From: an uncultured Planctomycetota bacterium
Lineage (GTDB): Bacteria; Planctomycetota; Planctomycetia; Isosphaerales; Isosphaeraceae
Assembly (NCBI GenBank): GCA_963823665.1
Contig: CAWGMQ010000004.1
Location: 224,001 to 288,000 of the forward strand
Reading direction: 5' to 3'
DNA length: 64,000 nt
Below, in pieces: positions 6,457 through 33,345 of the stretch (position 1 is its first letter; each line of letters begins with the position of its first letter). Below the pieces are notes generated by a model that worked only from the letters and a program-made list of their open reading frames with translations, did not search any database and was not told where the DNA came from. Position numbers and translations under genes: made by a program.

Positions 6457-7166
6457 GCACGCTCGAGCACGCAAAGGTTAGGACGAGTCTTCCTCCGCTG
6501 ATCGACGGCGAGCACCTTGACCAGCCTACCTTTCACAATCGCTACGAGGCGATGCCGCCAAGCACGAGGGCCGAGCTTGTCGGAGGAGTCGTTTACATGC
6601 CGTCGCCGATGTCTTCGGATCATGGCGATGAAAGTCGAAACGTGGCAGGCTGGCTCTTCCACTATCAGCGGAAGACAACCAGGGTCAAGGGTGGCGACGG
6701 CACAACAGCCAAGCTCTTCAAGCAGAGCGAGCCACAGCCCGATCACCACTTGCGAATCCCGGCGGTACTTGGAGGCCACACCCATGTCGATGCAGGCGGC
6801 TATCTAGTCGGCCCCCCCGAGCTGATCGTCGAAGTCTCGCGCTCTAGCCGTTCGTTTGACTTGAAACAGAAGAAAGCAGACTACGAACGAGCCGGGGTTT
6901 TGGAATACGTCGTAGTCGAGATCGACCCCAATCGCATCCACTGGTTCCTGCGCAGCGGCGCCCGCTTCAAGAAGCACGCGCCCGGCGCCGATGGGATCTA
7001 CCGCTCCAAGACCTTTCCGGGTTTGTGGCTCGATTCCGAGGCGCTCTATGCAGAAGACCTGGATCGCTTGATCGAAGTTCTCGAACAAGGCCTCGCCACA
7101 CCCGAGCACGCCGCCTTCGTGGCGAAGCTGGCAAAAGCTCGCCGCACCGGCGGCGACGCGCATTGA
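6453..7166 (+). CDS. Uma2 family (DUF820) endonuclease-like protein, copy 2
   Basis: AELVGGVVYMPSP, EPQPD, PELIVEVS, KKADYERAGVLEY, FPGLWLD. Start overlaps the copy 1 stop (ATGA). Confidence 0.92.
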   Translation: MSTLEHAKVRTSLPPLIDGEHLDQPTFHNRYEAMPPSTRAELVGGVVYMPSPMSSDHGDESRNVAGWLFHYQRKTTRVKGGDGTTAKLFKQSEPQPDHHLRIPAVLGGHTHVDAGGYLVGPPELIVEVSRSSRSFDLKQKKADYERAGVLEYVVVEIDPNRIHWFLRSGARFKKHAPGADGIYRSKTFPGLWLDSEALYAEDLDRLIEVLEQGLATPEHAAFVAKLAKARRTGGDAH

Positions 7167-7187
7167 CGGCCAATGCCTTCGTCGCCC

Positions 7188-7804
7188 TCAAGCTTCGCCT
7201 CCGGACTTCAGGTTTTTCTTCAAGCTCCGAGCTTCCTCCTGCAGCATCTTCTGCACCCGGTTCTTGGCCACGAACACGTGCGCGACCGGCACCTGGAGCC
7301 GTGCCGCCGCCGCCGCGCCCGAAAGACCCTCAACCGCCGTCATCTGAAACGCGTCCCAGGTTACCGGCTTCACCCGCTTCTTCACGCGGTGCATGGCCAG
7401 CTCGAGCACTTCCGCGTCAAATGCGTCCTCGAGTCGCTGCTCGAGATCCGTCTTGGCCTCGGCCGATTCCGCGATCGCTTCGATCGGGGCCGCCGCCATG
7501 TTCGGGTCCTTGCGCCGTGAATTGATGAAATCACTCAAAGCATGCTGGGTAACGGTCTTGAGCCATGCGCGAAAGCTCGCGCAGGATCGTACTGAAACTT
7601 GCGGATCGCCGCCACAAGCTTGATCAGCACGTCCTGAACCACGTCGTCGGCGTCTGAATCCTGGAGCTGCCACTTCAGACACCAAGCGCGGATCATCGGC
7701 CGGTAGCGCTCGATAAACTTGTCCCACGCCTCCGGGTCGGCGGGAAACTTCTGCAAGCGCATCATCAGCGTGACCGACGTATCGTCGACGGGATGGCCCG
7801 GCAT
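7188..7804 (-). CDS. ECF RNA polymerase sigma factor (planctomycete kinase-associated type), 1-nt frameshift at ~7580
   Basis: Joined frames: TSVTLMMRL...DPEAWDKFIERYRPMIRAW...DADDVVQDV...FQYDPAR|SFRAWLKTVTQH (sigma2) and TWDAFQMTAVEGLSGAAAAARLQVPVAHVFVAKNRVQKML (sigma4 HTH). Confidence 0.9.
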
Positions 7805-7892
7805 GCAAACCCTTTTCACAGGGACGTCGCGCATGCGGAGCGTGGAATTCGGCCTCACACTCGGACCATATCCACGTTCTGCCGGCGCGGCT

Positions 7893-10800
7893 CTACCGTG
7901 CCAATCTATCACGGCGCGGCAATCGCGAAAAGCTTCTGGTGAAACTCGATCGCGTCAGCCTCGGCCGGGCGACTGCGGTCCAGCCCGTCAGCATTGTGGC
8001 CGCAAGAAGGGGTAGCGAAGCGTCGACTGGCTCGTCCCGCGCGTGGTTCACGAAAGGATGGAATGTCCGGCGAAGCCGCGGCCCGAGCGCGGCGTGGCGC
8101 GATGAAACACCATCGATTTGCGCGCACCGGTCAAAAGCCACAACGACACGGATCGGCCCTCCGCTCGAGAATCGCACGGGCGCGACGAACAGTACACCCT
8201 CACCCCACATCGAATCGATGCTCGCGTCAACGGCGTCGCCCGGCCCGACCGGCTCCGCGCTCTCGATCTGGGCATCCCTCGAGCCATTCAAAGGTGCGCC
8301 GCCATTCGGTAGTACGCCCGACGGAGCGCTCGGAGCCGACGAATCGGCCGACGGCTTCGGCTTCGACGGATCGCGACCGGCGTCCGGACTTTGCGGCCCC
8401 AGGATCCGGCTCTGGAACTCGCGGCGGAATTGCTCAAGCGCCTGATCGAGCCCGAGCATGAACCGCTCCCACGGTGTTGCGCTTGATAGGCCTGGACCGG
8501 CGCCCTCCAGCGATTCGCCGGCTCTCTCGGCTTCGTCGACTCCGGCGAGCACACCGCCCGATCGACGAGACATGCTCTGGCCCAATGAGCCAGTCGCGCC
8601 GACCGGCGCGGCGATCGACGCGATCGCCTCGCTCTGGGCCGACTCCACGTTGAGCTCCCCCTCCGACGTCGAGATCGTCAGCGTGAGCAGCGACGCCACC
8701 AGAGCCACCGATGATTCATTGAGCGGCACCAGTTGCGCGACGCTGTTCACACTTCCCGCAGACGTCTCCGATTGGGTCTGGGCCTGCGCCAGAGTTTCGC
8801 CTTCCAGGCTGATCCCCACCAGCGTGGCCGCTTCGTGCCCGGCCGTGGCGGCGTAGAACTGGACCTGGCCGCCCGAAAGCGACGCAAACGCCAGGTCGGT
8901 CGGGCTGGGAAGATTCGGTTGCATCGCGGTCGACACCATTTCCAAGCCTTGCTCGCTCCCTTCGAAGAGCGCCATCACCCCGTCGCCGGTGTTGCCCACC
9001 ACCATGTCCTCAAAGTCGCTGTCGGAACTGAACGCGAAGGCCGTGTCTGGGTCGTCGCCACCCGAGGAGATCGTACTCGCCACCGAATTCTGGCCGCTCC
9101 AGTCGGTGTAGAGCGTCACGCTGTTCGAGCCCGCGTCCACGGTCACCAGGTCGCTCACACCGTTGAAGTCGCCCACAAAGCTGGTCACCGGATCCTCACC
9201 CACCTTGTAGACCCGCGGGTTCTGGTCGTCGAAAAACCCCTGGCCTACGCCCGGCAAGAGCGTGACGTCATTCGAGCCGCTGTTGGTGACCAGGATGTCA
9301 GGGAAAGAGCTGCCCGTGAAGTCGCCGACGATGGTCGAGACCGGCCCGATCCCGCCCGACGAGAGCCGCGGCCCCTGCGTGAAGTTGAAATTCCCCTGGT
9401 TCAGCAGAATCGAGACTTCGTTCGAGCCTTCGTCGGCCACCACGAGGTCCGGGAGGCCGTTGCCGGTGAGATCGGCGACAGTGATGCCAACTGGGTTCGT
9501 TCCCGTGAAAATGCCCCGTCCGTCATCGATGGCCGGCCCGAACTGGCCGTTGCCCAGACCGGGATAGATCAGTACGTTATTGCTCCCGCTGTTGGCGACG
9601 ATCAGGTCGGGATTGCCGTCGCCGTTCAAGTCCGCCAGCTTCACCGCGCCGGGGTCCAGTAGCCCCGTGGCTTGATTGGCCAGGACCGTCGGGCTCGCCT
9701 CGCCACGATCGACAACCACCCGGTCTAGGCCCTGGTCCGCGTAGATCACATCCTTCGAGCCATTTCCTGATAGATCGGCCACGGCCAGCGTGATGGTCTG
9801 ATCGGTCGCGCGGTAAGGCGCGAACGTTCCGTTCCCCTGGCCCAGAAGCACCAGGGCATCACCAAACGAGTCGCCGACAATAAGGTCGAGTGTCCCTCCA
9901 TTATTGACATCGGCGACAGACAGCCCCGTGGGATCCAAGCCGGCATCATACGTCACCGGATTCGAGAAACCCCCCTTGCCGTTGCCCAGATAGATGCTCA
10001 CACCATTCGACGTGAGTACGGCCAGGTCCGAGATTCCATCGTCGTTGAAGTCGGCCACGCGCACCGCCAGGGCAGGGCCGTCGGTCTCCAGCGTGACCGG
10101 ATTCGCAAACCGCTGACCTCCCAGACCGGCGATCACCGAGAGCGTGTCCGAGCCGGGGTTGATCGTCACGAGATCAGGCAACCCGCCGCCTGTAAATGTT
10201 CCCACCGCAACACCCGACGTCGCATCAACGCTGGTCGACCCTTCGAGGAAGGTAGCGTTGCTGCTAACCGACCAGAAACCAGTGCCGCCGCGATAAACCG
10301 CGGGTGGACTGAATGTCCCGTTGCCCTGGTTGAACAGCACAGTTACCTGACTCGTGACTCGGTTGGTGACCACGAGATCGAGCCGGCCGTTTCGGGTCGT
10401 GTCGAGCGCCTGAACGTCTGAAACCCCCAGGCCCACGTTCAGGATCAGGGGCGCCAAAAAGCTCACGCCATCGGCCGCGGGGTTGAAAGGTCCCACGGTT
10501 TTGGCAGCCAGGAATACCGACAAAGTGCCGGCGCCGGCATTCTGGACAACCAGGTCGTCCAGGCCGTCGCCCGTCAAGTCGGCCGAGATGATCTGCGCTG
10601 GCAGCACCCCCGTCGGCAGCGACCCGATCCGGATGAAGCCGCCCGCGCGCCACATGTACAACGTGACGGCTTGATCGAGGGCATCGACGCTGGCTAGGAC
10701 CGCTCCATCGCTCGTGTCGAAAGTCGCGATATCGCGCGACGGGTTGCCGGGATTGACCGTGACGGGCGGCAAAAACGAACCCGGATTGCCGCTGATCCCT

Positions 10801-13800
10801 TGCCGGTACAAAATATCGCCCGCCCCATTGATGACCAGCACATCGGGAATACCATCACCCGTCATGTCAGCCACCACGGGCGTCGCATGAGCGATCTCGT
10901 CGAGCTGGCTCGCGTTAGAAAACGTTCCATCCCCATTACCCAAGAAAATCACGGCATTGTCGTTCAGCTCGTCGTCGGCAGCCAGGTCATCCTTCCCGTC
11001 GCCGTTGAAATTCGCGACCGCCAGAGCTCCGAAATCAGCATTTGCATATTGATCCGTTGAATCTGCCAGTGGACCATACTCAGAAGTCGCATCCCCGAAG
11101 CTGCCGTCGGGATTGCTCAGGAAGATTCCGAGCCCGCTGTAATTAATCGATTGTCCGTCCGACTGTTCAATCCCGTCCACGACGGAAATGGCCAGATCGT
11201 CACGGCCATTCCCCGTGAAATCGCCGGCTACCATGGACAGCGGTTGCAAGATCGATTCAGAGTCGCCTATCTTAAACGTACTGTTGCCGCCGCCCAGCAA
11301 GATCGTGAGCCTCCCGGTCGAGGAACCCGGCGCGGCAACCGCGGCAACGGCGAGGTCAAGCTTCTTGTCACCATTAAAATCACCGGTCGCCATGAACTGA
11401 GGTATCCCGCCGACCGGGTAGTCTCCGTTGGGAATGAGATTACCGTCGCTGTTGCCCAGAAGGATCGAAACGTCGCCGGTTACGGAACTGACGAACGCCA
11501 CGTCTTCCGCGCCGTCGCCGCTGAAATCCGCCGCCGCGAGCGGCCCGCGGCCCGCGTACTCCACCGCCGGCTGGAACTTGCCGTCGCCATTGCCCATCAA
11601 GATCGAGATCTCCGCCGGCCCCGGGCCGGCTTCGTTGACCGCGGCGGCCAGGTCGAGCTTCCCGTTATCGGTGAAGTCTCCTTCGACCAGATCATACGCC
11701 GCGCCGCCGGCTGCGTAATTCACGGCAGGCTGGAACGTACCGTCGCCATTGCCCAGCAGCACCGACACGCCGGCGGCATCGGCCACCGCCAGGTCGAGCC
11801 GTCCGTCGCCGTTGAAATCACCCGCCACGATGGCTGAAGGATCAGCACCGACCGCGTAATTCCCAGCGAGCTGGAAATTACCCAGCCCATTGCCCAGCAA
11901 GATGGCAACCTCCGAGCCAGAGGTCGCGACGGCCCCGTCGCCCGTCCCGTCGCCGGTGAAATCACCGGCGGCGACGGCCCGCGGTGTCCCACCCACCACA
12001 TTTGTCGTGAGCGTCGCTGGCGGACCCGCCAAGGTCAGTGTGGTCGTCAGAGTGTACGTCCCCTTGCCGCTTTCACGCTCGACATCCAGGACATAAGAAC
12101 CCGCTACCAGGTAGCCGCTCAGGAGGTCATCACCGTCCGCGAACGACTCGCCATCACTGTCCATCAGCACGGTGCCATTGGTGTACTCGAGCACGAGCCG
12201 CGTGGTAACACCAACGTCGTGGACCAGCGCCGTGAAATTCCCGCTCGCGTTGGCGTTGATCGAATACGACACGATCGAGGGCGCACTGCCACCCGATATC
12301 GCCTGGATCGGAGCGGTGATCGCGAGCTCGTCGACAGGGATATTGTTGGGGAAGCCAAAGGAATCGAGCATCGCCACATCGCGAATTGTAAGATCACCTG
12401 AAATGTAGAGCAAATTCATTAGCTGTATATCAATGAGCGTAGATCCTTGAAAGCCGGGTTGAGACGAGCCGTCGATCAAGGTTGGTGTGGTGATATTGGG
12501 CCGCTCGGAGAGTGGCCCGATCGTTTGCACACCCTGGCCAGGTAGGTCGAAATCGATCGTGTTCGTGCCTGTCGTTGTCGCGGCGCCGTCATCGGCCAAC
12601 GCCTGCTCGAACGAGCCAAAACCGCTGGCCGCCGTCGTGGCCACCATGAAGACGCCAGTCGTGTCCGTGATGATGAGCAGCGAGCTCACGGGCGCCGCAC
12701 CCTGTGACGATCCGCTCAGCCGAAGCACGGCGTCGCCGTCGAACCCTGCCGGCGGATTAAACGTCATACCCTGGAGCGCGTCTTCGAGTGCACTGAGCAC
12801 TCCGCTGTACTCCAGGCTCGCCGTCCCGTCTCCTGTCCCGGTCAATCCCGCCATGCTCGAAAGCGCGAGCGTACCCGTCGAAACCGTCACACTCAGGTTC
12901 CAGGTCAAGTCATACGGGCCGGAATCTGGATCTTGCAGGGAAAGGGCGTTGCCCCATGCGGCAGAGAAAATCAGCGGCTGCCCCTTGATCTCGCTGTCAT
13001 ATTGCAACGACCCCGGGAACGTCGCCGCACGCAGCGGCGTGACCTCAGACGTATCCCCTGATGGGTCAGTGGCCGTCGCCGTGACGACCGAGAGTCCAGC
13101 GGGCAGTGTGAACGACGGCACGGCGAAATCAGCTTCTCCCTCGCCGTTGGTCGTCACGTTGAGCGATCCCAGGTAATCTTCCGCCTCTCCAGCGCCACCG
13201 GGCCCGTAGCCTGCACTTGCAAAGAAATCGATGCGAAACGTCGCCGCCGGAGCGCTGCCGTTCAGCCATCCCTCGAGCTCGCCATCCGGAAGGGTGACGA
13301 TCCAGGGATAGTTCTGCAAATTGTTCGGGCCCTGCCGAGCCGTCGAGCCGTTCAAAGTCACTCCGTCATTGCCCAGGTCGATGGCCTGTCCCGTATTGCC
13401 GAAGATACGATTGGCGGTGATCTGGTTGCCGACCGAGTCGATGAAATCGAACTCGCCGCCGCCCGGGCCGACCGCGACGCCGGCACCGTCGTTCGCGGTG
13501 ATCAGGTTTCCGGCAACAGCCGTCGATCCGCCGATCGTGTTGCCGAACGAACCCTCCTCGATCAGGATTCCGGGACCCTGATTGGGGAGAGAAATCGTGC
13601 CGGCAGCGTTCGTGCCGATCTCGTTGCCCGCGACCGCATTGTCATAGCTCATCACCGCGATCTCGACGCCGGCGCTTTGAGCCCCTGCGATCACGTTGCC
13701 AAGGTCCGCGAGCACTGGCCCGCCGTTCGGGTTGAGCCCCACCCAGTTCCCCGATGAGTTCCAGAGACGGACATCCGCGAGCTGGCTCCCCAGGATTTTC

Positions 13801-16800
13801 ATGCCGGTAACGTCCGTGCCGATGAAATTGCCGGCGACGATATTCCCCCCGCCGTCGCCGACGAGATCGACGCCGTTGTTCTGGTTGCCCGAGATCACGT
13901 TGCGCTCGCCCGCATCGTCGATGCCCTGACCGTCTGTCCCGATTCTGTTGTCGGAGGCATCCCCCCCAATCACCACGCCGCCGCCGATGTACGTGCCTAT
14001 ATTTTCATCTTCATACTCAATATAAGCATACCCTGTCGTCGGGACAAGACCGTTGGAGAGCGCCGCCGTGCCCGTCACGTCCGTGCCGATCAAATTGCCC
14101 GCGACAACGTTGCCGCTGGTGTTACTTCCGTTGATCAAAATACCCGCGACGAGGTTGCCGCTCAGCAGGTTCCGCTCGGATGAATCGTGCACGCCGTCGC
14201 CATTCGTGCCGATCAAGCTATTGCTAGCGCCGCCGTCGATCTCCACCCCCGAAGCATTGGGCTCGGCCCTCTTACCGGTCGGATCCGTGCCCAGGTAGTC
14301 GCCGTAGATCCAGTCGCCAGTCGCGTTCGCTCCTGTCACGTGAATAGCGGCCCCCTGCGAAAAGTTATTCACGTCGAGCCCGCGCACGGTCACGCCCGAT
14401 CCGGTGATCAGCAGGCCGTCGCCTCCCTCGGCCAGGCTCCCGCTGATTTCGATCAGAGGCGTGCCGCTGTACCCCGGTTGCGAATAGCCGTCAATGAGAA
14501 CCGGATTGGTGATCGCGGGCAGGCTCGAGAGCGGAGCGATCAACTGAACCCCTTGCCCCGGAATCATGAAGTCGATCGCGTTCGTGCCGCCGGCGGCGGC
14601 GTTGGAATCAAGAATCGCTTGACGCAACGAGCCCGGCCCGGCATCTTTCGTATCGGTGACAACAAAAATGCCGCTCGTGATCGTCACGGTCGTCTCGAGC
14701 GGCAACGTCCCGGCCGACTGGGCGGACATGCTTAGCGTCGCATTGCCCACGAAGCCCGGCGGCGGCGTGAAGGATAAGCCTTCGAGCGCTGCGTCGAGCG
14801 CCGCGATGTCTCCGTCATACTCGAGCGTGCTCGTGCCGTCACCGGAACCCGCGAGTCCGCCCGTTCCGGAGAGCGCAAGCGAGCCCGCTGTGACCGACAG
14901 AGTGACGTTCCAGATTGCATCGAGCGGACCTGTGCTCATATCTTGCAGCGCGAAGCCGTCGCCGTTGGGCGCCGCGAAGACCAGCGGCTCTCCGGAAGTC
15001 TGGCGAACTTGCTGCGGCGGTGCCTGCAACGAGGTTTGCCGGGCCGCCGAAACCTCGGAGGTATTGCCATCGGGGTCGGTGGCCGTCGCAGTGATCACCG
15101 GCAGGCCCTCCGGCGCAGCAAATGGCACCTGAAAGACGGCGTTGCCTTGGTCGTCAGTCGTCACTTCCAGAGATCCCAGAAAATCCTGAGCTTGCCCCGC
15201 GCCATCGGGGTCAAAACCGGCACTGGCGAAGATGTCGATAAGAAATGACTCCTCAGGAGTGCTTCCCCACAGCCAGCCCTCGAGGCCGCCATCAGCAGTC
15301 TCGGCGATGATCGGGAAATTCTGAAGGTTGTTCGGTCCCTGGCGCGGTGAACTCGCGTTGTATGTGATCGCGTCGGCACCCAGATCGATCGCTTCTCCAT
15401 CGGGTACGACCCAGGTGGGTAGATCCCCGCCGGGTCCCGACAACGTGCCGTCCTTATCGTTGGACGTCACGTCGTGCACCGTCACGCCTTGGCCGTCGTC
15501 CAGGGGGTAGTCGGCCTCGAGCCCCGGTGCGGTGGCAGCCGGAGGGGTGCTCATATCTTGCTCGACCCGGTCCGCGGAGAGCGCCACGTTCCAGAGCCGC
15601 ACATTTGCGATTTGACCGACGAACCCATACCAACCGTCATTCGTGCTGGGATAATAATACCATGTATAGCCGGTTCCAATCTGGCCGAAGCTGCCGCCGA
15701 AGTCGAACGGTGAGCCGCTCGAAGATCCAACAAGCTGACCGTCCAGGTAAAGGCTCAATGTCCCGGACGCTTCGTCGGCGACCAGAGCGACCTGATGCCA
15801 GCGGCCATCGGCTACCGTCACCGTCGAAGTAAGCAGCGAAAAGCCAACCCAGTCGCCATAGAGCCGGCCGTCGGTCCCGACGTACAAGGCGGGCACCCAG
15901 CCGCTGACACCGTAGTTTCGCGGGCTTGTAGTCTGATACCCCAGAATGACGCCGCCGCTGGTAGTCTCGAACGAGGCCTCGATCGTCTCCTCGTCCTCGA
16001 AATTACGAACCAGGTTGTCCGGCAGAGTAACGTAAGTCGAACCGTCGAATTGAAGCGATCCCTGAGCGTCATTGGAAAAGTCCTGGTTGGCCGTGATCTG
16101 GTCGCCTACCGAGCTATCTCCCTCGACTTGCACGCCAGGCCCCGTGTTCAACGCGATCAAATTGCCGGCAGCCGCAGTGGCCCCGCCGATTGTGTTCTCG
16201 CTCGCGCCGTTCAAGATCTGAACACCAAAGCCGTTGGGCCGCGCTGTCGAGCCAGTGGGATCAGTGCCGATGTCGTTCGCGGTGATCGTGTCGCCGGTCG
16301 CCGCCGCTCCGCTGATCAGAATGCCCGCGCCGCTCAGGAAATTCCCGATGTCGAGACCGCGAATCGTGACGTCTGAACCAGTGATGGTCAAGCCATCCGC
16401 ACCGGGCGCCTGTACTCCGCTCAACTCAATGAGCGGCGTGCCGTCATGTCCTGGCTGTGAAAACCCATCGATCAGCACCGGGTTGCTGATCGCGGGCAAG
16501 CCGGTGAGTAACGCGATCGTCTGCACGCCCTGGCCCGGTATCGCAAAGCTGATCGTGTTCACGCCGCCGCTCACGAGATTCGAATTCAAGATCGCTTGCC
16601 GAAACGACCCGGCGCCGCTGTCCGCAGTGGTCGTTACTTGAAAGGTGCCGTCGGTGATGTTCACAAGGGCTTCGAGTGCCGGTGCGCCGTCCGAATCGGC
16701 GCTGACACTCACCGTGAACGTCCCTGTCGACCCGGCCGCGGGCGTATACAAGAGCCCGTCGAGCGCCGCGTCGAGTGACGAAAGTGAACCCTGATAGTGC

Positions 16801-19800: not shown

Positions 19801-22800
19801 CCAACATAAAGCGACGGAATATAGCCGAACGGATAGCCGGAAGTGCTGGCGTTCTGATAGCCGATGATGACGCCGCCGCCCGTCGTCTCGAACGATGCCT
19901 CGATCGTGCTCTCCGGCTGGTAGCCGTCCAGCGGAGTGTTGGAGAGAGCGACGTCAGTCGACCCGTCGAACGCAAGCGAACCCTGGTCGTCATTGTAATA
20001 GATCCGGTTCGCCGTGATCTGGTTGCCGGCGGAGCCCGTGCCCACGACCTGAACGCCCGGCCCCAGGTTGTACGCGATCAGGTTCCCCTCGGCCGCGGTT
20101 GCTCCGCCGATGAGATTGTTGCCAGCGCCGTTCGAGATCTGAATACCCACTTCGTTCGGTAACGGCTCCAGGCCGCTGGGATCGGTGCCGATATCGTCCG
20201 ACTCGATCGTATTGCCCGTGGCCGCGGTTCCGCTGAGAACAATGCCCGCGCCATTCACGAAACCGTTGATATCCAGCCCGCGAATTGTAACACCCGAGCA
20301 CGCGATGGAGAGACCGTCCGCGGCCCCGGCCCGGATGCCCGAAAGCTCGATCAAAGGCGTGCCGCTGTAACCCGGCTGTGAGAAACCATCGATCAACACC
20401 GGGTTCGTGATCGCGGGCAAGGCCGAGAGCGGCGCGATCGTCTGGATTGCCTGGCCCGGTATCGCGAAGTCGATTGTGTTCGCGCCCCCGGCCAGGGCGT
20501 TGGAATCGAGAATCGCTTGCCGCAGCGAGCCCGGGCCGCTGTCGGCGTTCGTCGTCACCGTGAAGACCCCATCGCTGATCGTCACCGCAGCCTGGAGTGC
20601 CGGCGCGCCAGCCGAAACGGCGTTCACATTCATCGTGAAGATGCCGTGCGAACCGCTCGCCTGAACATAGCTCAGGTCCCCAAGCGCGGCATCGAGCGCC
20701 GACAGCGATCCCGAATAGTCGAGCACGCCCGTCCCGTTGCCCGAGCCCAAGAGCCCACTCAGGCTCGAAAGCGACAATGTCCCCTCCGACACCGAAAGCG
20801 TCAGATTCCATGCCGGGTCGAGTGGCCCGGCGTCGGGATCGCCGATCGCGATGCCGTCGCCCAAGGCCGTCGAGAATTCGAGCGGCTGACCCGGGTTGAC
20901 GCGCAGATCCTGCGCTGGTGCTTCCAGCAACGCTCGCCGCGCAGGCGAGACCTCGGAAGTGTTGCCATCGGGGTCGGTGGCCGTTGCGGTGATCACGGGC
21001 ATCCCCTCGGGCGCGGTGAAGGGAACATTGAAAAGTGCCTGGCCCTGGCCGTCGGTCGTCACCTCCAGCGAGCCGAGGTATTCCTGCGCCTGCCCTGCAC
21101 CCTCGAGAGACAAGCCGGCACTGGCATAGATATCAATAAGGAAAGTCGAGTCGGGCGTGCTGCCGCTCAGCCAGCCCTGGAGCTCTCCGTCTGCGTTGGT
21201 GACGACGATCGGGAAATTCTGGAAGTTGTTGGGGCCCTGGCCCGGTGCCATTGCGTTGTACGTGATCCCATCGTCACCGAGGTCGACGGCCACTCCGGCG
21301 GGCGTGGCCCAGGTGGGCACGTCGCCGTTAAACCCCGATAACGTGCCGTTGTTGCCATTCGACGTCAGGTCATGCGCCGTCAATCCCTGTCCGTCGTCGA
21401 AAAGGTAATCGGCCTCGAGACCCGGGAGGCCGGCGCTCAGCCCGGTGATAATGTCCCCGCCGATCTCATCGGCCGTTCGCGCCTCGCTCCAGATCCTGAC
21501 ATCGTTGATCTCGCCGACGAAGCCATACCAGCCCCCCGGTGTGTCCGGCCAGTACTCCGTAAAGCCCATCCCGATCTGGCCGACCGGGGGGTTGAGGGTC
21601 TCGGCCGAGCCCGAAACAGACCCGACCAACTGGCCGTCCAGGTAGAGTGTCATCGTCCCACTCACCCCGTCCGTAACGAAAGCGACATTGTGCCACTGGC
21701 CGTCGTTGACGGTGGAGCTCGACGTGACCTGCTCGATTGAGCCGGAATAGGGATCGTACCCGCCGGCGTAGAGCCTGCCGTCGGTTCCGACATAGACCGT
21801 GGGATCCCATCCATAGAAAGTCGACCCCGGACTTCCCCCCTGACGGCCGAAGATGACGCCGCCCGAGGTGGTCTCGAACCAGCCCTCGAGGGTCGTGCTT
21901 TGCTCGGAGCCAACGATCAGGCCGTTCGGAATGCTGACGTAGCTCGAACCGTCGAATTGAAGCGATTGCGTGCTCTCGTCGTCGGAATAGATTCGATTGG
22001 CAGTGATCTGGTTGCCCACGGAATCCGCGCCGCTGACACTGACGCCGGGCCCCAGGTTGAACGCGATCAGATTTCCCTCGGCCGCGGTTGTCCCGCCCAC
22101 GAGATTGTTGCTCGCACCGTCGGAGATCTCGACGCCCAGATCGTTGGGTAATGCCTGCGTGCCCGTGGGATCAGTGCCGATGTCATTCGCTTCGATCGTG
22201 TTGGCGGTCGCGCTCGTTCCCGAGATCAAAACACCATCGCCCTCGCTGAACCCAACGATTTCCAGCCCGCGGACGGTCGACCCCGGGCCGGTGATCTCGA
22301 GCCCGTCGCCGGCCCCGAGTTGACTGCCGGAAAGCTCAATCAAGGGCGTGCCGCTGTAACCTGGCTGCGAGAACCCGTCGATCAAGACCGGGTTCGTGAT
22401 TGCGGGCAACGGAGAGAGGGGCTCGACCGTCTGGACCCCTGCGCCAGGAATATCAAACCCGATCGTGTTCGCCCCGCCGCCCACGGCGTCGGAATCGAGG
22501 ATCGCCTGCCGCAGCGATCCCGGGCCGCTGTCGGCGGTGGTCGTGACTGAAAACACTCCGTCGGAGAGGCTTACCTGGGATTCCAGTGCCGGTGCGCCCT
22601 CCGAGCCCGCGGCGAGCGTGAGCACAAAAACACCGTGCGTGCCCCCCGCCTGAAGATAGCTCAACCCCGAAAGTGCCGCGTTCAGAGCCGAAAGGGAGCC
22701 TTCATATTGAAGAGGGCTCGTCCCGTTGCCTTTTCCAACCAGCCCGCTCACGTTCGCGAGCGCGAGCGTTCCGGATGAAACCGAAAGCATGAGGTTCCAC

Positions 22801-25800
22801 TCCGGGTCAAGGGGCCCGGCATCCGGATCTTCGATCGCAATGCCGTCGCCCGACGCCGCCGAAAGTTCCAGCGGCTGCCCCGGCGCCAGACGCACAGTCT
22901 GCGTGGGTACTTCGAGTGCAGCCCGCCGTTCCGCGGAAACCTCTGATGTATTGCCCGCGGGATCAGTCGCCGTCGCCGTGACGATGGGAAGGTTCCCGGG
23001 CGCCGTGAACGGCACGTCAAAGACTACCTCGCCCTGACTGTCGGTCGTCACGTCCAGCGAGCCGAGATAGTCCTGCGCCTGGCCCGCCCCTTGAGCGGAA
23101 TAGCCGTGCTCGGCGTAGACATCGACGCGGAACGTCGTATCGGGGGTACTTCCCTCGAGCCAGCCTTGGAGGCCGCCATCGGCCGTCGTGACGATCGTCG
23201 GGAAGTTCTGAAGGTTGTTCGGGCCCTGGCGAGGCGAAGTCGCGTTGTACGTGATCCCGTCGTCCCCAAGGTCGATCGCGTTGCCACCGGGCAGCACCCA
23301 CGTCGGAAGATCGCCTCCCGCCCCCCCCAGCGTGCCATCGTTACCGTTGCCGGTCATGTCGTGCGCCGTCAGGCCCTCGCCGTCATCCAGCGGATAGTCG
23401 GCCACGAGGCCCGGTGAGCTCAGGCGCGGAGCCGTCGTCGCATCCTGCTGCACCTGCGCAGCCGAGAGCGCCACACTCCACATTCGCACGTCGGCGATCT
23501 GACCGACGAAGCCATCCCAGGTGCCGTTGGAGGAGCTTGGAGGCGTGTTCGGGAACCGGCCGCTTGTGAATCCGGTCCCGATCTGGTCGAAACTGAAGCT
23601 ATAATTGGCCGCCGTGCCACTCTCCGCGGCGACGAGCACTCCATCCAGGTAAAGATCCAGAGACCCGGACTCTCCATCCCCGACGAGAGCGACCTGGTGC
23701 CAGCGCCCGTCGTCGACGGTCGCCGTCGAATTGAGTGTCGAAAACGCCGACAGGTCGCCATAAAGCCTGCCGTCAGTCCCGACGTAAAGCGCTGGAATAG
23801 TGTTATCATATTCGGGATTGGTGAATGGGGCGAATTGCTGATAGCCGAGTATTACACCGCCGCCCGTCGTCTCAAATGACGCCTCGATGGTCTCATCGGC
23901 GTACGAGCCTCTGCACCAGGTTCTCCGGCAGAATGACATCGGTCGAGCCGTCGAATTGAAGTGCGCCCTGCTCGTCGTTGGAGAACATTCGATTCGCAGT
24001 AATCTGGTTGCCGAGCGAGTTGTTGCCGTCGACAACGACGCCGGGCCCCAGGTTAAACGCGATCACGTTGCCGGCAGCCGCGGTGGCTCCGCCGACGGTA
24101 TTGTCGTACGCACCGGTCGTGATCTCGATGCCGGTGCCGTTGGCCAGAGCCAGCGTCCCCGTCGCATCCGTGCCGATCAAGTTGCCCGCGATCTGATTGA
24201 GTTGCGACCCGGCCACCTGCACGCCCGCAGCCAGGTTTCCGCTGATCAAGTTGCCTTCCCCCGCTCCGCCCGATCCGCCGTCGTTCGTGCCAATCGTGTT
24301 GTCAGACGCACCGTCCAGCAATTGCACGCCGTAGAGGTTGCGCACAGCCTCGGAACCAGTGGGGTCCGTCCCGAGCTCGTTGCCGTAGATCCAGTTGCCG
24401 GTGGCGCTGGCGCCGTCGATCAGAATTGCCGCGCCCGACGCAAAACCGTTGATATCAAGCCCGCGCACACTAGCACCGGCGCAAGTAATCTCGAGCCCAT
24501 TGCCGCCGCCAGCTCCGGCTCCGCTCAATTCGATGAGCGGTGTCCCGGCATAGCCGGGCTGCGAGAACCCGTCGATCAAGACCGGATCGGTGATCGAGGG
24601 TAACGGCGAGAGGGGCGCAATCGTCTGGACGCCCTGGCCCGGAATTGCAAAGTCGATCGTACTCGTTCCACCGATAAAGAGGTCCGAATTGAGAATCGCT
24701 TGCCGGAGCGACCCCGGCCCGCTGTCCGCGGTTGTCGTCACCGAGAATGTTCCGTCCCCGATATTCACCTGAGCCGCAAGCGCCGGCGCCCCCGGAGAAT
24801 CGGCACTCACGCTCAACGGGAAACTCCCGTGCGTCCCCGCAGCCTGAACATAGGAGAGGCCCGCCAGTGCGGCGTTCAGGGCCGACAGAGTTCCCTGATA
24901 CTGCAACGTGCCCGTGCCGTTTCCCGTGCCCACCAATCCGCTCAGACTCAAAAATGACAACGTACCGGTCGCAACGGAAAGCGTTAGGTTCCACTCCGGG
25001 GCCAGCGGCCCCGCATCGGGATCTTCGATCGTGATACCATCCCCGGCGCCGGCGGAGAAATCCACCGGCTGACCGGCGGTCGAGCGCAACTCCTGCGTCG
25101 GAATCTCAAGCGTCGCCCGTCGCTGCGCCGACACTTCCGAAGTGTTGCCGAGGGGATCGGTCGCCGTGGCGGTGACCACCAGCATTCCAGCCGGCGCACT
25201 GAACGGGACGTCGAATGTCGCCTGGCCCTCGCTGTCTGTCGTCACTTCCAATGAACCGAGGTAGTCCTGCTCCTGGCCGGCGCCTTGCGCAGAAAAGCCG
25301 GCACTCGCGTACACGTCGACGCGAAACGTCGTATCAGGTGTGCTGCTCCCCCCCAGCCAGCCCTCGAGCCCGCCGTTCGCCGTTTGAACGATCACAGGGT
25401 AATTCTGAAAGTTGTTCGGCCCCTGGCGCGGTGAAGTCGCGTTGTACGTGATCCCGTCGTCACCCAGATCGATCGCTTCTCCGCCCGCCACGACCCAGGT
25501 CGGCAGATCCCCGTCGGGCCCCGCCAGGGTCCCATCGTCATGATTAGGGGTCAGATCACTTGCCGTCAGGCCCTCTCCATCGTCCAGAGGATAGTCGGCC
25601 GCGAGCCCCGGCGCGTTAGCGGCCGGAGTTGTGGTCAGATCTTGCTCGACCTCGCTTGCCGAGAACGCCTCGTTCCAGATCCGCACATTCGCGATCTTTC
25701 CTGCGAAGCCATACCATCCGCCGGGGGTATTCGCCCAGTTGGTTGTATAGCCGGTTCCGATCTGGTCGAAATAGCCGCCGAAATTCGAAATTGACCCGGT

Positions 25801-26883
25801 CCCGGTTCCAACAAGCTGTCCATCCAGATAAAGGCTCAGCGTCGAGGACCCGGCGTCCGCAACCATGGCAACCGAATGCCACTGACCATCATTCACGGCC
25901 ACACTCGAGACGACCTGGTTGAATTGCCAGATATCTCCATAAAGCCTGCCGTCGGTCCCGACGTACAAGGCGGGCACCCAGCCGCTGGCCGGGTAGTTTT
26001 CCGGGCTGGCAGCTTGATATCCCAGAATCACTCCACCGCTCGTGGTCTCGAAGCTGGCCTCGATCGTCGACTCCAGATCGTTGTCGTTAATCAAATTCTC
26101 GGGCAGGCTCACGTAGGTCGATCCGTCGAACTCGAGCGAGCTGTTCGCCTGGTTGGAAAAGTCCTGGTTAGCTGTGATCTGGTTGCCAACGGAGCTTTCC
26201 CCTTCGACGTCGACGCCGGGCCCCGCGTTGAACGCGATCAGATTGCCGGCAGAAGCGGTTGACCCACCGACGGTGTTATCACCCGCCCCGTTCACGATCT
26301 GAACGCCGAAATCGTTGGCAAGCGCCTTCGAGCCGGTCGGGTCAGTGCCGATATCGTTCGCGGTGATCGTGTCACCCGTCGCACTCGCTCCGCTGATCAA
26401 AACACCCGCGCCCTGAGAAAAACCATTGATGTCCAGGCCTCGTACCGTGACATCCGAACAGAAAATGTCCAGCCCGTCGCCGCCCCCGGCCTGGCCCCCC
26501 GAAAGCTCGATCAACGGCGACCCGGTGTACCCCGGCTGCGAAAAACCGTCGATCAGCACGGACTGGGTAATCGCCGGTAGGGGCGATTGGGGCAAAATTG
26601 CCTGGACGCCCGTGCTCGCGATGTCGAATTCAATCGTGTTCGCCCCGGCGACAGCGCCGTTGGAATCAAGGATCGCCTGCCGCAGCGAGCCGGCACCGCT
26701 GTCGGCGGTCGTCGTGACCAAGAACGACGCGAGGAGCGTGCGGTCTTCCATGAAATCGAAGCCGGGCCGGAAGTGGAAGCTCATCTCGAAGGACTGGCCG
26801 GGGCGTGCAGGCCCACGACGCCGGCGGCGATGCCTTCGATCCGGAAAGCCCGCGATCCTGTTGAGTTTGTCACCGCTGGTCAT
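7893..26883 (-). CDS. Giant (~6,330 aa) secreted/surface repeat protein: LEPR-xLL N-terminus, 7-8 CSLREA/beta-helix units, 6 LamG-like domains, FG-GAP (VCBS-like) repeats; 1-nt frameshift at ~23910
   Basis: ORFs 23893-26883 and 7893-24035 join at [19 protein letters not shown], matching the other repeats. N-terminal RRHRRRRR...[15 protein letters not shown]. Repeated [15 protein letters not shown], GNxIGTD, VNDGxWHxVALV...LYLDG and many GDFxGDGxxDLAV motifs. Confidence 0.92.
12400..26730 (-). repeat. Intragenic tandem array of ~2.0-2.2 kb units in the giant protein
   Basis: GS[LF]RQAI unit starts near 26720, 24740, 22545, 20560, 18630, 16635 and 14660, with a degenerate eighth (GSFEQAL) near 12645. 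Confidence 0.9.
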
Positions 26884-29800
26884 CGCCGCCTCCAGGGGTC
26901 ACGTTCGCCTGAAAGTCGAAGTCGCTCGCGCGCAGCCGTCGGCGCAGCACGTTCATGGCCGGGTCGCGCTCGCCTTGCAAGATCTCGCGCCAGAACTTCG
27001 CGCGCTCGCTCGCCGGAAGCCTCTTCAGTGCTTCGCGCAAGAGCGCCGTGCCGCGGTCCTGATACTGCTCGACCTGGCTGATCGACGCCCGCCCCTTGGT
27101 ACGCACCTGGGCACCGGCAACCGCAGCGGCTCGCGCGTAGATCCTTGCGGTGCCATAGAGACGCTCGGCCGTGAAGCCGCCCAGACCAAGCGCCCTCTCC
27201 GCGTCCGCGACGGCCTCGGAATGCCGGCCGGGCAGCCGCACCAGCGCGGCTGCCCGGCCGGAGAGAGCATCGGCGTTCGCTGGGTCCAGACGCAGGGCTA
27301 GGTCGAAGTCGGGCAAGGCCAGCTTCGGAGAGTCTGAGACCAGGTAGAGCCTGCCGCGCTCGAGATACAAACCCGCCCGGCCAGGCTCGAGCGCGATCGC
27401 CTGAGTGTGATCCTCGACCCCGCCGGCGATGTTCCCCAGCCCGGCCCGCGCCAGCCCGCGCAGCTCGTAAACCGCGGCTGACTTCTTCTCCGCGGCCAGG
27501 AGCGCATCGCAAGACTGGATCACTTCGTCGTATCGCTTCAAGTCCAGCAGCACCTGAATCCGTAGCATGTTCGCATCCGGATAGACGCGGTCTACTTTCA
27601 AGGCCGCCTCGGAAGCCGAAAGGGCCTCGCTCAACCGATGCTCGTCGTACAGCAGCTTTGCCCGCAGCGTGTGATCGCGTGCTAGAACGGAATTGGCCGG
27701 GTTCTCCAGCCGGATCGCGTGATCCAGGTCCGAGAGCGCCTTCGCGCGTTGAAGAGCGGTCGCCACCTTCCGGTCCAGCACCGCGTCCGCTCGCGCGCGG
27801 TACAGTGCCGCTTTGCCCGGCTCGAGCGCAATCGCCCGGCTAAGCTGCTCGATCGCCTCGTCCGGTTTGTGCTGCCGCCGGTATACCGCCGCCAGCCCCT
27901 CAAACGCCTGCGATCGGCTCGCGTCCAGCCCGATTGCGGCCTGAAAATCGGCCGATGCCTTTTCCCAGTCGGTATGCTGAACAAAAAGATTTCCCCGATT
28001 CACCAGAAGCACCCAGCGCAGCAGGTTGTCCGGCTTCTGCGCGAGCGCCTCGAGCACCCGGTCGTAATCGTCGAGTGCGAACTGAAAGTGCTCGTCGTTC
28101 CCGTCCTTCGCGGCCCTCGCAGCAAGCTGCATCGAGGCCAGGCCGCGCCAGACGTACAGCCAGGCATTATCGGGTTCGCTCCGGATGCACTCGCTCAGCC
28201 GATCCCAGGCAAGCTGGTGCTGCCCGAGATGCAACGCGCAATGTGCGGACAGGCATCGCGCCCAGAAATGATCAGGCTGCCGTATCCGAGTGAATTCGAA
28301 ATGTCGGTTCGCCGACGCATAGGCCCCGCGCAGGAAGTCCTCGCGGCCGGCGAGGAAATGGTCGATCGGAGTTGCCAGCGGTTGGGCGTCGGCCACCTGC
28401 CGCTCTTTTTCGGCCCCGGACCCATCGCCCGTCTTGGAGAGGTAAAAGGCACGCCGCAGATGATACGTCTTGTCCGGCGTGTGCAACGTGGCCGCCCGAT
28501 CCAGCACGCGCAGACTCTCGGCGGGTTCTTCGACCGCTTCGGCCAGGATCAGCAGAAGCTCATAGCAACCTTCCCTGATCCGCTCCTTCTCTTCAGCCGA
28601 AAAGCTCGGCGGCAGTGTTTCAAGCGCCCAGGAATCGGGAGTCGTCCTTGTGGCAAAGACATCCAGAGCCGCGCGCGCCGCCCGGCGGGTCGATTCGCGG
28701 CTTGTGGATAGCACGGGCCCGGTGAACCCCGTGTCATGAGTGAAGGCCAGTTGCCTGCCGCGCAAGAATTCGCCCAGGCGTTCGCGGTCCTTGGTACGCG
28801 AACGCCGCTCGGCAAGCCGCTCGTCAATCTGCTCGCGCAGACCCTGGGCACGAAGCTTCAGGTCGCGTTGCTTGGCGGGTCGTGCCTCGATATTCTTGAG
28901 TACCGCCTCCAGGCTCCCGCGAGCCTTTTCCAGATCACGCCCCATCTCCGCCTGTGCCTCAAAGATCGCGTCGGAATTGGTCTGGTGAGCGATGGCAAGC
29001 TGCTGGGAGCTGTACCGCTCGTAACCGACAAGTAAGCCGATCCCACATGCAACAGCCGCCGTGCCCCCGAAGAGAGATGAAGCCTTGAACGGGTGCCGCC
29101 GCGCCCACTTCGCCCCGCGCTCCCAGAACGGCGTCGGCCGCGCCTTGATCGGTTCTCCGTTCAAGTACCGCCGCAGATCATTCGCCAGCGCCTGGGCCGA
29201 GGCGTAGCGCTTGTGCGGCTCTTTGTTCAAACACTTGAGGCTGATCGTCTCCAGGTCGCGCGGCAGCCGCGGCACCAGCCGCGAGGGCGCCACAGGCTCG
29301 TCATCGATTACCTGCCGGATGGTTTCGATCGGCGTCTCTCCCTTGAAAGGCGGCCGCCCCGTCAGCATTTCATAAAGGATGGCCCCGAGCGCATACACGT
29401 CGGCCGCCGGCCCGATGTTGCGCGTGTGCCCCCGCGCCTGCTCGGGCGCCATGTAGCTCGGCGAGCCCATCACCTGCCCGGTCTCGGTGTGCATGTCGTC
29501 TGATTCAAGCCGCTTGGCCAGCCCGAAGTCGGTGACTTTGAGCACTCCGTCCGCCGCAAACAACACGTTCGATGGCTTCAAGTCGCGGTGAATGATGCCG
29601 GCCTCGTGCGCGGCGACGATAGCCTGCGCCAGCGTCTCGAGCAGCTCCGCCGAAAGTCGCCCAGCCTGCGGCGTGCCCCCCAGCCGGTCTGTCAGACTGC
29701 CCCCCTCAAGCAGCTCCAATGTGACATAGGGCGAGCCGTCGACTTCGCCAATGTCGTAGATCTGAATGATGTTGAGGTGTCGGAGCCGAGCAACCGCTTC

Positions 29801-30319
29801 GGCCTCGATCGAAAACCTCAGCAGGTGTTCGGGCTTCGCCTGGCCTCCGCCCCGAATCATCTTCAAGGCAACCAGCCGGTTGAGCCCCACCTGCCGCGCC
29901 TTGAAGACCACCCCCATGCCGCCTTCACCGAGCCGGTCGACAATCTCATAGCCGGGGACCGCGGGCCAATCGTTCCGGCCGGTCGACGTTTTGAATCCAA
30001 GCGAGCCGCCGCCACGCCCGCTCGAGGTCAACGTTCGAGCCATACCCGGCGGCGAAAGATCACCCGTCTGGTCGTCCGTACTTCCTCGTGCCGGATCCGC
30101 TTCGTCGCTTCCTTCCTCGATCTCCAGTTCCCCCACACCCGCCGGGTCGGCCATGGTCGATTTCCAACCCTGCCCACGAGTGATGTTCTCCAGCAGCTCC
30201 TGGCAGCTCAGGCAGATCTCGATGTGGATTACAACCTCTTCGAGCTCCGGCCCTTCAAGGCACTCGTCGAGCAACCCCTGAATCGAATCCCGGCTGGGGC
30301 AAACGCTCATGGAAGTCAT
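26870..30319 (-). CDS. Ser/Thr protein kinase with N-terminal zinc-finger (ZAS-like) motif, one TM segment and C-terminal TPR repeats
   Basis: HIEICLSC; GEGGMG, VALK, HRDLKPSN, DFG and MAPEQ all intact; hydrophobic SSLFGGTAAVACGIGLLVGY; TPR-like helical repeats. Stop overlaps the giant gene start by 14 nt. Confidence 0.95.
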   Translation of the reverse strand: MTSMSVCPSRDSIQGLLDECLEGPELEEVVIHIEICLSCQELLENITRGQGWKSTMADPAGVGELEIEEGSDEADPARGSTDDQTGDLSPPGMARTLTSSGRGGGSLGFKTSTGRNDWPAVPGYEIVDRLGEGGMGVVFKARQVGLNRLVALKMIRGGGQAKPEHLLRFSIEAEAVARLRHLNIIQIYDIGEVDGSPYVTLELLEGGSLTDRLGGTPQAGRLSAELLETLAQAIVAAHEAGIIHRDLKPSNVLFAADGVLKVTDFGLAKRLESDDMHTETGQVMGSPSYMAPEQARGHTRNIGPAADVYALGAILYEMLTGRPPFKGETPIETIRQVIDDEPVAPSRLVPRLPRDLETISLKCLNKEPHKRYASAQALANDLRRYLNGEPIKARPTPFWERGAKWARRHPFKASSLFGGTAAVACGIGLLVGYERYSSQQLAIAHQTNSDAIFEAQAEMGRDLEKARGSLEAVLKNIEARPAKQRDLKLRAQGLREQIDERLAERRSRTKDRERLGEFLRGRQLAFTHDTGFTGPVLSTSRESTRRAARAALDVFATRTTPDSWALETLPPSFSAEEKERIREGCYELLLILAEAVEEPAESLRVLDRAATLHTPDKTYHLRRAFYLSKTGDGSGAEKERQVADAQPLATPIDHFLAGREDFLRGAYASANRHFEFTRIRQPDHFWARCLSAHCALHLGQHQLAWDRLSECIRSEPDNAWLYVWRGLASMQLAARAAKDGNDEHFQFALDDYDRVLEALAQKPDNLLRWVLLVNRGNLFVQHTDWEKASADFQAAIGLDASRSQAFEGLAAVYRRQHKPDEAIEQLSRAIALEPGKAALYRARADAVLDRKVATALQRAKALSDLDHAIRLENPANSVLARDHTLRAKLLYDEHRLSEALSASEAALKVDRVYPDANMLRIQVLLDLKRYDEVIQSCDALLAAEKKSAAVYELRGLARAGLGNIAGGVEDHTQAIALEPGRAGLYLERGRLYLVSDSPKLALPDFDLALRLDPANADALSGRAAALVRLPGRHSEAVADAERALGLGGFTAERLYGTARIYARAAAVAGAQVRTKGRASISQVEQYQDRGTALLREALKRLPASERAKFWREILQGERDPAMNVLRRRLRASDFDFQANVTPGGGDDQR

Positions 30320-30500
30320 TCCTTGATGAGTCTTCTCAATCGATCGATCGATCGCATCACCGGCAAAAATGGGTGCTCACTCACAGTACATGCTTTGAGC
30401 GCCGACCTAACACTCCTTTCCTCCTCATTCATCCAAATTGCCAAAAGCACGTCCGCGCCAGCCAACTTAGGCGTCGCACCCCGCGCAAGCCGCAGCCGAT

Positions 30501-30536
30501 CTTTCCCCCCCTTGCAAAGCGGGGCCAGGGGGGGTG
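30501..30536. repeat. C-run/G-run palindromic REP/MITE-like element
   Basis: CCCCCCCTTGCAAAGCGGGGCCAGGGGGGG, an imperfect hairpin in intergenic DNA. Confidence 0.4.
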
Positions 30537-31030
30537 AACGCCGTCCCACGCCAGTGATCCGCTCGAACCACCAGCTCCCACGTTCGCTCACGGCCCCCGC
30601 ACATCGTGCGGCGGCACGGCTTCCCCCGATGTCGACGAAGTCGCCCCACCGTTCGTCACCCGCGCATTCAACCTCGCCAAGCGCTCCTGCGCCTCCTTCT
30701 TCGCACGTTCGCCTCTTTGATCTCCTCGTTGTCGGCAGCGTCGATCTGGCCCTGAGTGAGTTCCAGGTACGCGCCCCTCACCCGATCCATGTCCGCCGCC
30801 AAGAACAGGTTGGCATTCAACAAAAACTCCTCTCCCCTCCTTTTTTTGCCCAATCCGGCCCGTTTCCAAAAAAAGTCTGTCCCCGCGCCCGCATAATCGG
30901 ACCTGGCAGTGCACAGCCGGCATCCGCCGGACCAGATTGCGCGGCCGTCGTGCCGGCCATGTCCCGATCAGCGCAGCCCTTCAGCGATTCAACCAAGCAG
31001 GCCAATGCGAGCGCCATCGCTCCACCTCAA

Positions 31031-31130
31031 TGTCGCCCAGCGCTCCGCGATGGGATTCAGTCTCCTCCATTGTCGCCCTTCGCTTCACGAAGGGATTCAG
31101 TCTCCCCATTGTCGCCCAGCGCTCCGCGAA
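31031..31130 (+). repeat. Short tandem repeat, ~40 bp x 2.5
   Basis: TGTCGCCCAGCGCTCCGCGA-TGGGATTCAGTCTCCTCCAT / TGTCGCCCTTCGCTTCACGA-AGGGATTCAGTCTCCCCAT / TGTCGCCCAGCGCTCCGCGA. Confidence 0.75.
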
Positions 31131-31390
31131 GATCGCTCTTGAAGTCGAAGGGCTTCGAAATTGCCAGAGGCGTTCTTCCACTCAATCGCGTTGCAACAGA
31201 GCCGAATTTACATCTCGTCGGTCTGAGGCGGAGCCTCGTTAGCCTTATGTCGAAATCAGAGTTCGCCACTTTCTCCGCCAAACCGTGGCCTATCCTGGAG
31301 TTAGTCACACACCATCGACGTGGATCCCGACGGGGCGGTCGTTTCACCGCGACTGTCTGCGCGAACTCTCCGAATTCTCATCACAAAGAT

Positions 31391-32876: not shown

Positions 32877-32878
32877 AG

Positions 32879-33343: not shown

Positions 33344-33345
33344 CC

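Follow-up and report, generated by a model that had tools for sequence, protein, structure and literature searches.

A 64,000-nt stretch (the window) of contig CAWGMQ010000004.1, from the genome of an uncultured planctomycete of the Isosphaeraceae (assembly GCA_963823665.1; 16.46 Mb in 12 contigs), carries three co-oriented minus-strand genes that encode a Hanks-type serine/threonine kinase, a giant partner protein and a sigma factor of the extracytoplasmic function (ECF) type (Table 1). The kinase stop codon overlaps the ATG of the giant gene (26883) by 14 nt, and the giant stop codon (7893) lies 88 nt from the ECF ATG (7804), much as the initial annotation of the window, which gave three co-oriented genes, a 14-nt overlap and a gap of ∼90 nt, had described. 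The locus is a real, conserved and uncharacterised variant of kinase-linked ECF signalling.

Table 1. Features of the kinase-partner-ECF locus (window coordinates)
Feature	Position	Strand	Remarks
Bipartite ECF-type promoter (putative)	30385..30413	-	GTGTTAGGT, 14 nt, TGTACT; starts 94 nt upstream of kinase ATG
Kinase (zinc site, Hanks kinase, transmembrane segment, TPR)	26870..30319	-	1,149 aa, intact
Zinc-binding anti-sigma (ZAS)-type site	30179..30304	-	Cys7, His32, Cys36, Cys39
Ser/Thr kinase domain	29150..29959	-	glycine loop, K153, HRD 244-246, DFG 264, APE 291
Single predicted transmembrane segment	29027..29083	-	aa 413-431; by hydropathy alone
Helical/TPR superhelix, ∼700 aa	26915..29020	-	predicted periplasmic; subfamily-defining; pLDDT 90.8
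Giant partner	7893..26883	-	6,329 aa when read through; surplus base near 23909
Arg-rich N-terminus, planctomycete export-type motif	26722..26781	-	variant; scores on own profile
Six ∼660-aa repeats	14679..26733	-	each beta-helix-like, LamG/ConA-like lectin, Ig-like
Seventh repeat, then small domain	12006..14666	-	long beta-helix-like part, no LamG; own profiles
FG-GAP/VCBS repeats	8805..12071	-	∼1,090 aa
Conserved tail motif	8391..8840	-	M1 (QLVPLxESSLxLxxTLL), linker, M2 helix (WxRFxxGLDEAL)
C-terminal hydrophobic helix, then Arg-rich end	7971..8015	-	probable membrane anchor
ECF sigma factor	7188..7804	-	205 aa read through; one base missing near 7577

The kinase matches PF00069 (2.4e-50) with every catalytic motif intact, and its TPR superhelix is confident in an AlphaFold model. 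The HIEICLSC motif, intact catalytic domain, single transmembrane segment and TPRs of the initial annotation are all present, and Cys7 can be added to them, giving a ligand spacing (Cys7-X24-His32-X3-Cys36-X2-Cys39) that conforms to the ZAS pattern, Cys/His-X23-26-His-X3-Cys-X2-Cys. In the giant partner, repeats 1 and 6 share 65% identity, and no sequence relative of the first repeat was found in the PDB. Its N-terminal variant of the export motif has no Pfam (Planc_extracel, PF07595) or NCBIfam match and was recognized by a profile made for this analysis; the consensus published for planctomycetes is RRLxxExLExRxLLA (PMC8567305).

As deposited, the giant gene is split into two open reading frames (996 and 5,380 aa) by one surplus base near 23909 and the ECF gene is short of one base near 7577. 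The 6,300-aa adhesin of the initial annotation is thus recovered as a protein of 6,329 aa when read through, while in the deposited sequence both it and the ECF are frameshifted. Both one-base breaks look like assembly errors. The base missing at 7577 is present in a 287-nt public contig that has no substitutions relative to the window, and in an orthologous locus from the same genus (85% identical over 23.5 kb) the giant gene lacks the surplus base and the ECF gene is intact, although that locus has breaks of its own at other places. No contig bridging the giant's break near 23909 was found among the matches listed, and the evidence on this break therefore comes from the orthologue and from the repeats within the gene itself; a programmed frameshift at this position was ruled out because the orthologue is without the extra base. 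That two of the three genes are broken as deposited, one of them at a position left unbridged by the matches listed, would fit a locus decaying in this strain through genuine frameshifts. This is very improbable, however, given the restoration of the ECF frame by a near-identical contig, the lack of either break in the orthologue and the occurrence of the same kind of single-base error in unrelated genes of the window (a Uma2 gene and a histidine kinase gene).

Kinase-partner pairing and the conserved tail

The family was surveyed with a profile of the region of the kinase that follows the membrane segment, with at most 12 candidates scored per genome. Matches came from 37 of the order's 86 genomes, at 111 merged loci, of which 83 were fetched and two low-scoring ones set aside, so that the counts below cover 81 loci in 31 genomes. 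A partner-type gene lies directly downstream of the kinase in 78 of these, and the three exceptions comprise a contig end, a locus in which another kinase comes next and a diverged partner-like open reading frame. By comparison, a partner-like gene was found within 4.5 kb of only 3 of 42 kinases outside the family, and the gene arrangement is therefore far above chance. FG-GAP repeats were seen in 69 loci, the tail motif in 56 and the export signal in 52, whereas LamG domains occur in just six. Partner lengths range from ∼450 to 6,300 aa, and partners of ∼450-700 aa that lack FG-GAP and lectin domains nevertheless retain both the export signal and the C-terminal motif. The partner can thus dispense with giant size and with adhesin domains, and the conserved three-gene unit first suggested holds as a conserved unit whose core is the kinase and its partner, the ECF being missing from 46 of 71 informative loci.

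Beyond the family, 13 of 191 genomes of the wider class were matched. In one family, 7 of 9 such kinases precede large proteins with the same type of N-terminal motif, and in two further families none of four kinases is followed by such a protein. All three genes and the promoter described below are present in a record labelled Gemmataceae (L236), and a compact version of the module occurs in cultured Singulisphaera acidiphila DSM 18658 (L230). The whole module with its promoter was also seen in a record labelled Alphaproteobacteria (L262), which reflects either mis-binning or transfer. At several loci (L025+L075, L127+L128, L129+L130, L067+L076), two tandem partner genes, each with its own signal and tail, stand behind one kinase. 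Two others (L020+L094 and L238) are tandem modules, and the upstream copy of L020+L094 keeps a ZAS remnant and has lost its kinase and TPR region; duplication followed by loss could be the source of the position of the ECF at the end of the operon.

The tail, which comprises M1 and M2, another short helix and then a hydrophobic helix with a basic end, is kept even in partners with no adhesin domain at all. It has no Pfam match and no usable match in the ESM Atlas, and a profile built from it detects 543 representatives at E<=0.001, with FG-GAP repeats in 108 of the best 150. A hydrophobic 17-mer ends 85 of 108 full-length tails (58 at a stricter cut-off) and is followed by net positive charge in 83 of the 85, while M1 and M2 sit 150-250 aa away from it. 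In AlphaFold models the tail is mostly disordered and the M2 helix is confident. In the window's genome the profile finds six loci, each behind a family kinase, and across the order 69 of 85 tail matches fall within 30 kb behind a family kinase, in a test biased by the training of the profile on kinase-linked tails. Nine of the remaining 16 were examined; six are cut by contig ends and one follows a ZAS remnant from which the kinase has been deleted.

Four records (three clusters, 80-88% identical) join an ECF directly behind the partner helix at the same junction, the ECF's own Met being replaced in two of them. No locus carrying such a fusion was recovered. The fusions suggest a helix that crosses the inner membrane with its C-terminus inside, and they tie the partner to the sigma factor. 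A kinase/TPR fragment joined to a tail (P0148) and another tail-ECF join (P0271) were each seen in one record; as either could be an artefact of assembly, both were discounted.

The succession of motif, hydrophobic helix and basic end resembles tripartite sorting signals (PMC1569441), and by analogy the tail might serve as a sorting or processing signal, with the TPR kinase chaperoning or counting unexported partner and feeding back on its expression; a largely disordered tail with short conserved helices and an operon that appears to be autoregulated (see below) would both suit such an export monitor. It is nonetheless decidedly unlikely. Sorting signals usually serve many unlinked proteins, whereas here each tail stands behind its own kinase; the distance of M1 and M2 from the helix is also unlike such signals, there is no PEP motif, and the C-terminal 1,368 aa of the giant have no NCBIfam match. 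No processing enzyme was seen, and no search was aimed at one.

Zinc site, sigma factor and promoter

The first Cys of the ZAS is invariant in 37 of 37 rows that were picked on HxxxCxxC alone. Among solved structures the ZAS profile is matched best by the anti-sigma factors DdvA (E 3.5e-5) and RsiW (2.7e-4), and Pfam zf-HC2 matches 36 of the 37 rows at E<=0.1, the score of the window kinase itself (15.5) being under the gathering score (22.2). The ECF, a protein of ∼200 aa limited to sigma2 and sigma4 as is typical of the type, is intact in the orthologue, where it passes TIGR02937 (73 bits, cut-off 42.9) and is 88% identical to the window copy. Of 71 informative loci (10 more being truncated), 25 of the 45 that have a ZAS and none of the 26 that lack one carry an adjacent ECF gene, one of the ZAS-negative calls possibly reflecting a site hidden by a frameshift. 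The anti-sigma-like motif of the initial annotation can accordingly be described as a ZAS-type zinc site, and the restriction of adjacent ECFs to loci that have it is consistent with a predicted anti-sigma role. In metagenomes, the ZAS directly follows the ECF in 49 of 57 informative loci (23 of 80 were too short). Genomes yielded 41 ECF loci, with a ZAS kinase downstream in 18, a partner tail upstream in 11, a divergent ZAS in four and other arrangements in six, two being short. The ECF-ZAS-kinase layout recurs at many paralogues in the window's genome, which gave no fewer than 110 matches to Ser/Thr kinases and 51 match rows of ECF type, and where many ECFs directly precede ZAS kinases with varied sensor domains. 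One such locus (L145; G000:C6:1523000-1533000) follows the same logic but has the canonical order of genes: an ECF comes first, then a ZAS kinase with a different TPR family, then a gene of at least 1,279 codons for an exported protein.

The window ECF has the acidic SDADD motif noted at the outset and not the non-acidic Thr motif of the ECF43 type. A Ser stands before DADD in the window ECF, as it does in 12 of 30 ECFs, and the N-terminal T-x-x-S/T-L of the ECF is near-invariant (44 of 47 at each position). Since the kinase is intact, and a serine target has been named for ECF59 in a review (PMC8103513), these residues leave room for activation of the sigma factor by direct phosphorylation in the style of EcfP and EcfK, with the ZAS as a docking site rather than an inhibitor. 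Such a route is somewhat unlikely, because the DAED-type motif is intact and acidic, at least 12 of 30 ECFs have Ala in place of the Ser, and the best solved relatives of the ZAS profile are true anti-sigma factors. In the initial annotation the acidic motif was taken to mean that the EcfP mechanism does not obviously apply; phosphorylation elsewhere on the sigma factor would be compatible with such a motif. The alternative bears on no step but that of the sigma factor, and could hold under either of the roles considered below for the giant partner.

Upstream of the kinases, ∼100 nt before the ZAS, is a conserved pattern, GTGT(A/T)AG(G/A)T, 14-15 nt, NGTA(T/C), which we take to be an ECF-type promoter from its likeness to SigW/SigX-like promoters. 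It has one match in the window, against 0.01 expected. A promoter was counted if its score exceeded the 99th percentile of shuffles when its own genome had been excluded from training, and was thus detected in 21 of 26 ECF loci (the training class), in 6 of 8 truncated ZAS loci, in 4 of 20 ZAS loci without an ECF, in 1 of 29 ZAS-less loci (a marginal and distant match) and in 1 of 13 loci of other families. It is also present in loci outside the training set (L236, L238, L262 and L280), and in the same-genus genome a stricter pattern has five matches (none for the control), four of them at module loci. A variant site 48-60 nt before the ECF was matched in 21 of 56 canonical ECF-kinase loci (0-6 in shuffles), but only 6 of 54 such loci pass the score threshold. 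An ECF behind a partner was preceded by a site of its own in none of 14 cases, and a scan of 7000-8200 for sigma-70 promoters and terminators found none. A single ECF-driven transcript fits these observations.

Two further kinds of site were encountered. A strong match before an ∼85-aa open reading frame with two hydrophobic stretches (L274; G000:C7:570493-570521), near-identical in the same-genus genome, marks a candidate regulon member. At L272 (G000:C4:1775990-1776018) and L282, a strong promoter points away from the ECF of a convergent module and is conserved in the same-genus genome with no clear long open reading frame behind it; it possibly marks a small RNA or peptide gene, or is the remnant of a rearrangement.

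Proposed signalling operon and its alternatives

It is proposed, at about even confidence, that the locus is a signalling operon which regulates itself and has a two-chain receptor as its basis. The proposal draws on gene linkage, the conserved tail, the co-occurrence of ZAS and ECF, the predicted promoter and the tail-ECF fusions, all demonstrated by sequence analysis. The ECF would likely transcribe the kinase, giant and ECF genes from the promoter upstream of the kinase. The kinase would reside in the inner membrane, where its N-terminal zinc site probably holds the ECF inactive in the manner of an anti-sigma factor. It is fairly likely that the giant is exported by means of its N-terminal motif and that its C-terminal helix keeps it in the inner membrane, with the basic end inside. 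Its membrane-proximal motif would then dock on the periplasmic TPR superhelix of the kinase, and the passenger, which can be exchanged (there may be none, FG-GAP alone, or repeats of the lectin/beta-helix kind), would determine what the kinase responds to, two steps that together are evenly balanced between holding and failing; prediction of a complex between the TPR region (700 aa) and the tail motif (121 aa), carried out without folded controls, scored 0.32, 0.02 and 0.01 in three runs and speaks neither for nor against the contact. More speculatively, the kinase might become more or less active on ligand binding, load or loss of the passenger, and the ECF, freed when the ZAS region or the sigma factor is phosphorylated, might make more of the whole module. 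RshA/PknB, cited in PMC13147305, offers a precedent for release from an anti-sigma factor that is driven by a kinase. Where a lineage lacks ZAS and ECF, the kinase-partner pair would signal to other targets. The lectin-like and FG-GAP domains suggest polymers or surfaces as the sensed cue, but LamG is present in just 6 of 81 loci, and surface contact, the candidate signal of the initial annotation, is a conjecture.

The giant might, on the other hand, be an output only, with the ECF-ZAS-kinase circuit switching on an adhesin of its own operon while the TPR region senses another cue and does not contact the giant. The ECF-type promoter that precedes the operon does make the giant a likely transcriptional output, as had been suggested initially, and a similar site is found before another exported-protein gene beside another ECF; most ECFs of the clade, moreover, pair with ZAS kinases that have no such partner. 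That the giant has this role alone is unlikely, since the kinase-partner pair persists in ZAS-less loci without ECF or promoter, the tail is kept in partners without adhesin domains, and in the window's genome the tail is found solely behind this kinase subfamily.

A number of observations weigh against the two-chain receptor or against single steps of it. The strict promoter pattern has six matches in the window's genome and five for a reversed control, so that solely the positions of the matches are informative: three are before module kinases, one flanks the ECF of a fourth module and one flanks another ECF. After correction for the tree neither correlation is significant: promoter and ECF agree in ∼4/7 pairs and disagree in 0-0.5 (p 0.125-0.25), and ZAS and ECF agree in ∼2/5 pairs with none in disagreement (p 0.5), a Fisher p of 3e-7 for the latter having been discarded because kin are not independent. 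There are 20 ZAS loci without an adjacent ECF. At two promoter-positive loci where an ECF was predicted, none was found in the next 30 kb and 20 kb, respectively, and a third has a distant, weaker-scoring ECF 6 kb on. To the training bias of the tail profile must be added two of the nine stray tails examined, which have no kinase in the fetched stretch. The window's own C-terminal helix is weakly hydrophobic, the four tail-ECF fusion records represent a single event, and the model offers no route to the surface for a 6,300-aa protein that is held in the inner membrane.

Planctomycetes are rich in TPR-bearing membrane kinases and in kinase-linked ECFs, and the analysis supplies a candidate TPR ligand (M1/M2), a candidate target promoter and a putative anti-sigma/kinase hybrid, which are testable with small fragments. 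Should the contact between TPR and tail be true, one kinase scaffold could be re-aimed by exchanging surface domains. More tentatively, the module may represent a class of two-chain bacterial receptors not described before. Its constant element would be the TPR kinase, which would read the conserved motif next to the membrane on a separate, freely reprogrammable surface protein of 450-6,300 aa, and a fused zinc anti-sigma would couple it to an ECF that amplifies the whole receptor. Such a class would parallel, in bacteria, the pairing of receptor and co-receptor kinases and, if true, would serve the sensing of surfaces or polymers.

Divergent from the kinase (31350-35515, plus strand) are genes for a histidine kinase, a response regulator and a REC-PAS-GGDEF-EAL protein, which place a c-di-GMP locus beside the adhesin-like operon; the histidine kinase gene is frameshifted, and the open reading frame at 29588-33343 is consequently an artefact. 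Converging on the ECF (5750-7166, plus strand) are two tandem Uma2-family genes that follow ClpX, the first of them frameshifted.

Relation to known systems

The planctomycete ECF groups linked to kinases appear solely as predictions in the accessible parts of the reviews. The literature searched, as far as its accessible parts extend, gave no description of the promoter, of the fusions or of the obligate partner with its tail, and other papers may bear on them. Closest by description are groups in which a planctomycete ECF stands beside a kinase with one transmembrane segment: ECF62s1-3, where the kinase has an N-terminal zinc finger; ECF59s2, with TPR-fused kinases; and ECF217s1, whose context includes a Planc_extracel protein and TPR (Casas-Pastor 2021, PMC7826278). 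For ECF62, the pairing of an ECF with a zinc-finger kinase was already in print. The zinc-finger kinase type is shared with ECF62, but in the window it is encoded two genes upstream of the ECF and not at +1, although relatives mostly have the ZAS at +1; the ECF of the module follows the partner or is divergent, rather than being at -1 of the kinase. The module further differs from the three groups in having TPRs and not WD40 repeats and an obligate partner with a conserved tail, and from ECF62 and ECF217 in that its promoter is conserved, which is reported not to be the case there (PMC7826278).

DdvS/DdvA of Myxococcus xanthus (PMC6061681; PDB 8rlz, 8rot) shares the N-terminal ZAS, the single transmembrane segment, a large periplasmic TPR region and an autoregulated ECF, and DdvA is the best solved match of the ZAS profile; DdvA differs, however, in having a periplasmic CHAT protease and no kinase, and a giant partner is not described in the accessible part of that work. 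A Hanks kinase with one transmembrane segment beside an ECF is shared with PknS/EcfK of Xanthomonas citri and PknT/EcfP of Vibrio parahaemolyticus (ECF43), as are the periplasmic TPRs with PknS, where they are needed for signalling. ECF43 members lack the acidic DAED and are activated by phosphorylation (PMC8999054), whereas the ECF of the module has an acidic motif and its kinase a ZAS site. Planctomycetota serine/threonine kinases with periplasmic TPR arrays have the same architecture and predicted topology (PMC11032199); the function of these TPRs is described there as mostly unknown, and the accessible main text names no partner protein and makes no mention of zinc or FG-GAP. A final likeness is to the PEP-CTERM proteins and PrsK/PrsR/PrsT (PMC1569441), in which variable exported proteins end in a motif, a helix and a basic cluster and are associated with a kinase and a TPR protein. 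In the planctomycete module, by contrast, there is no PEP motif, kinase and partner genes are linked one to one, and a Ser/Thr kinase and an ECF take the place of the His kinase and sigma-54.

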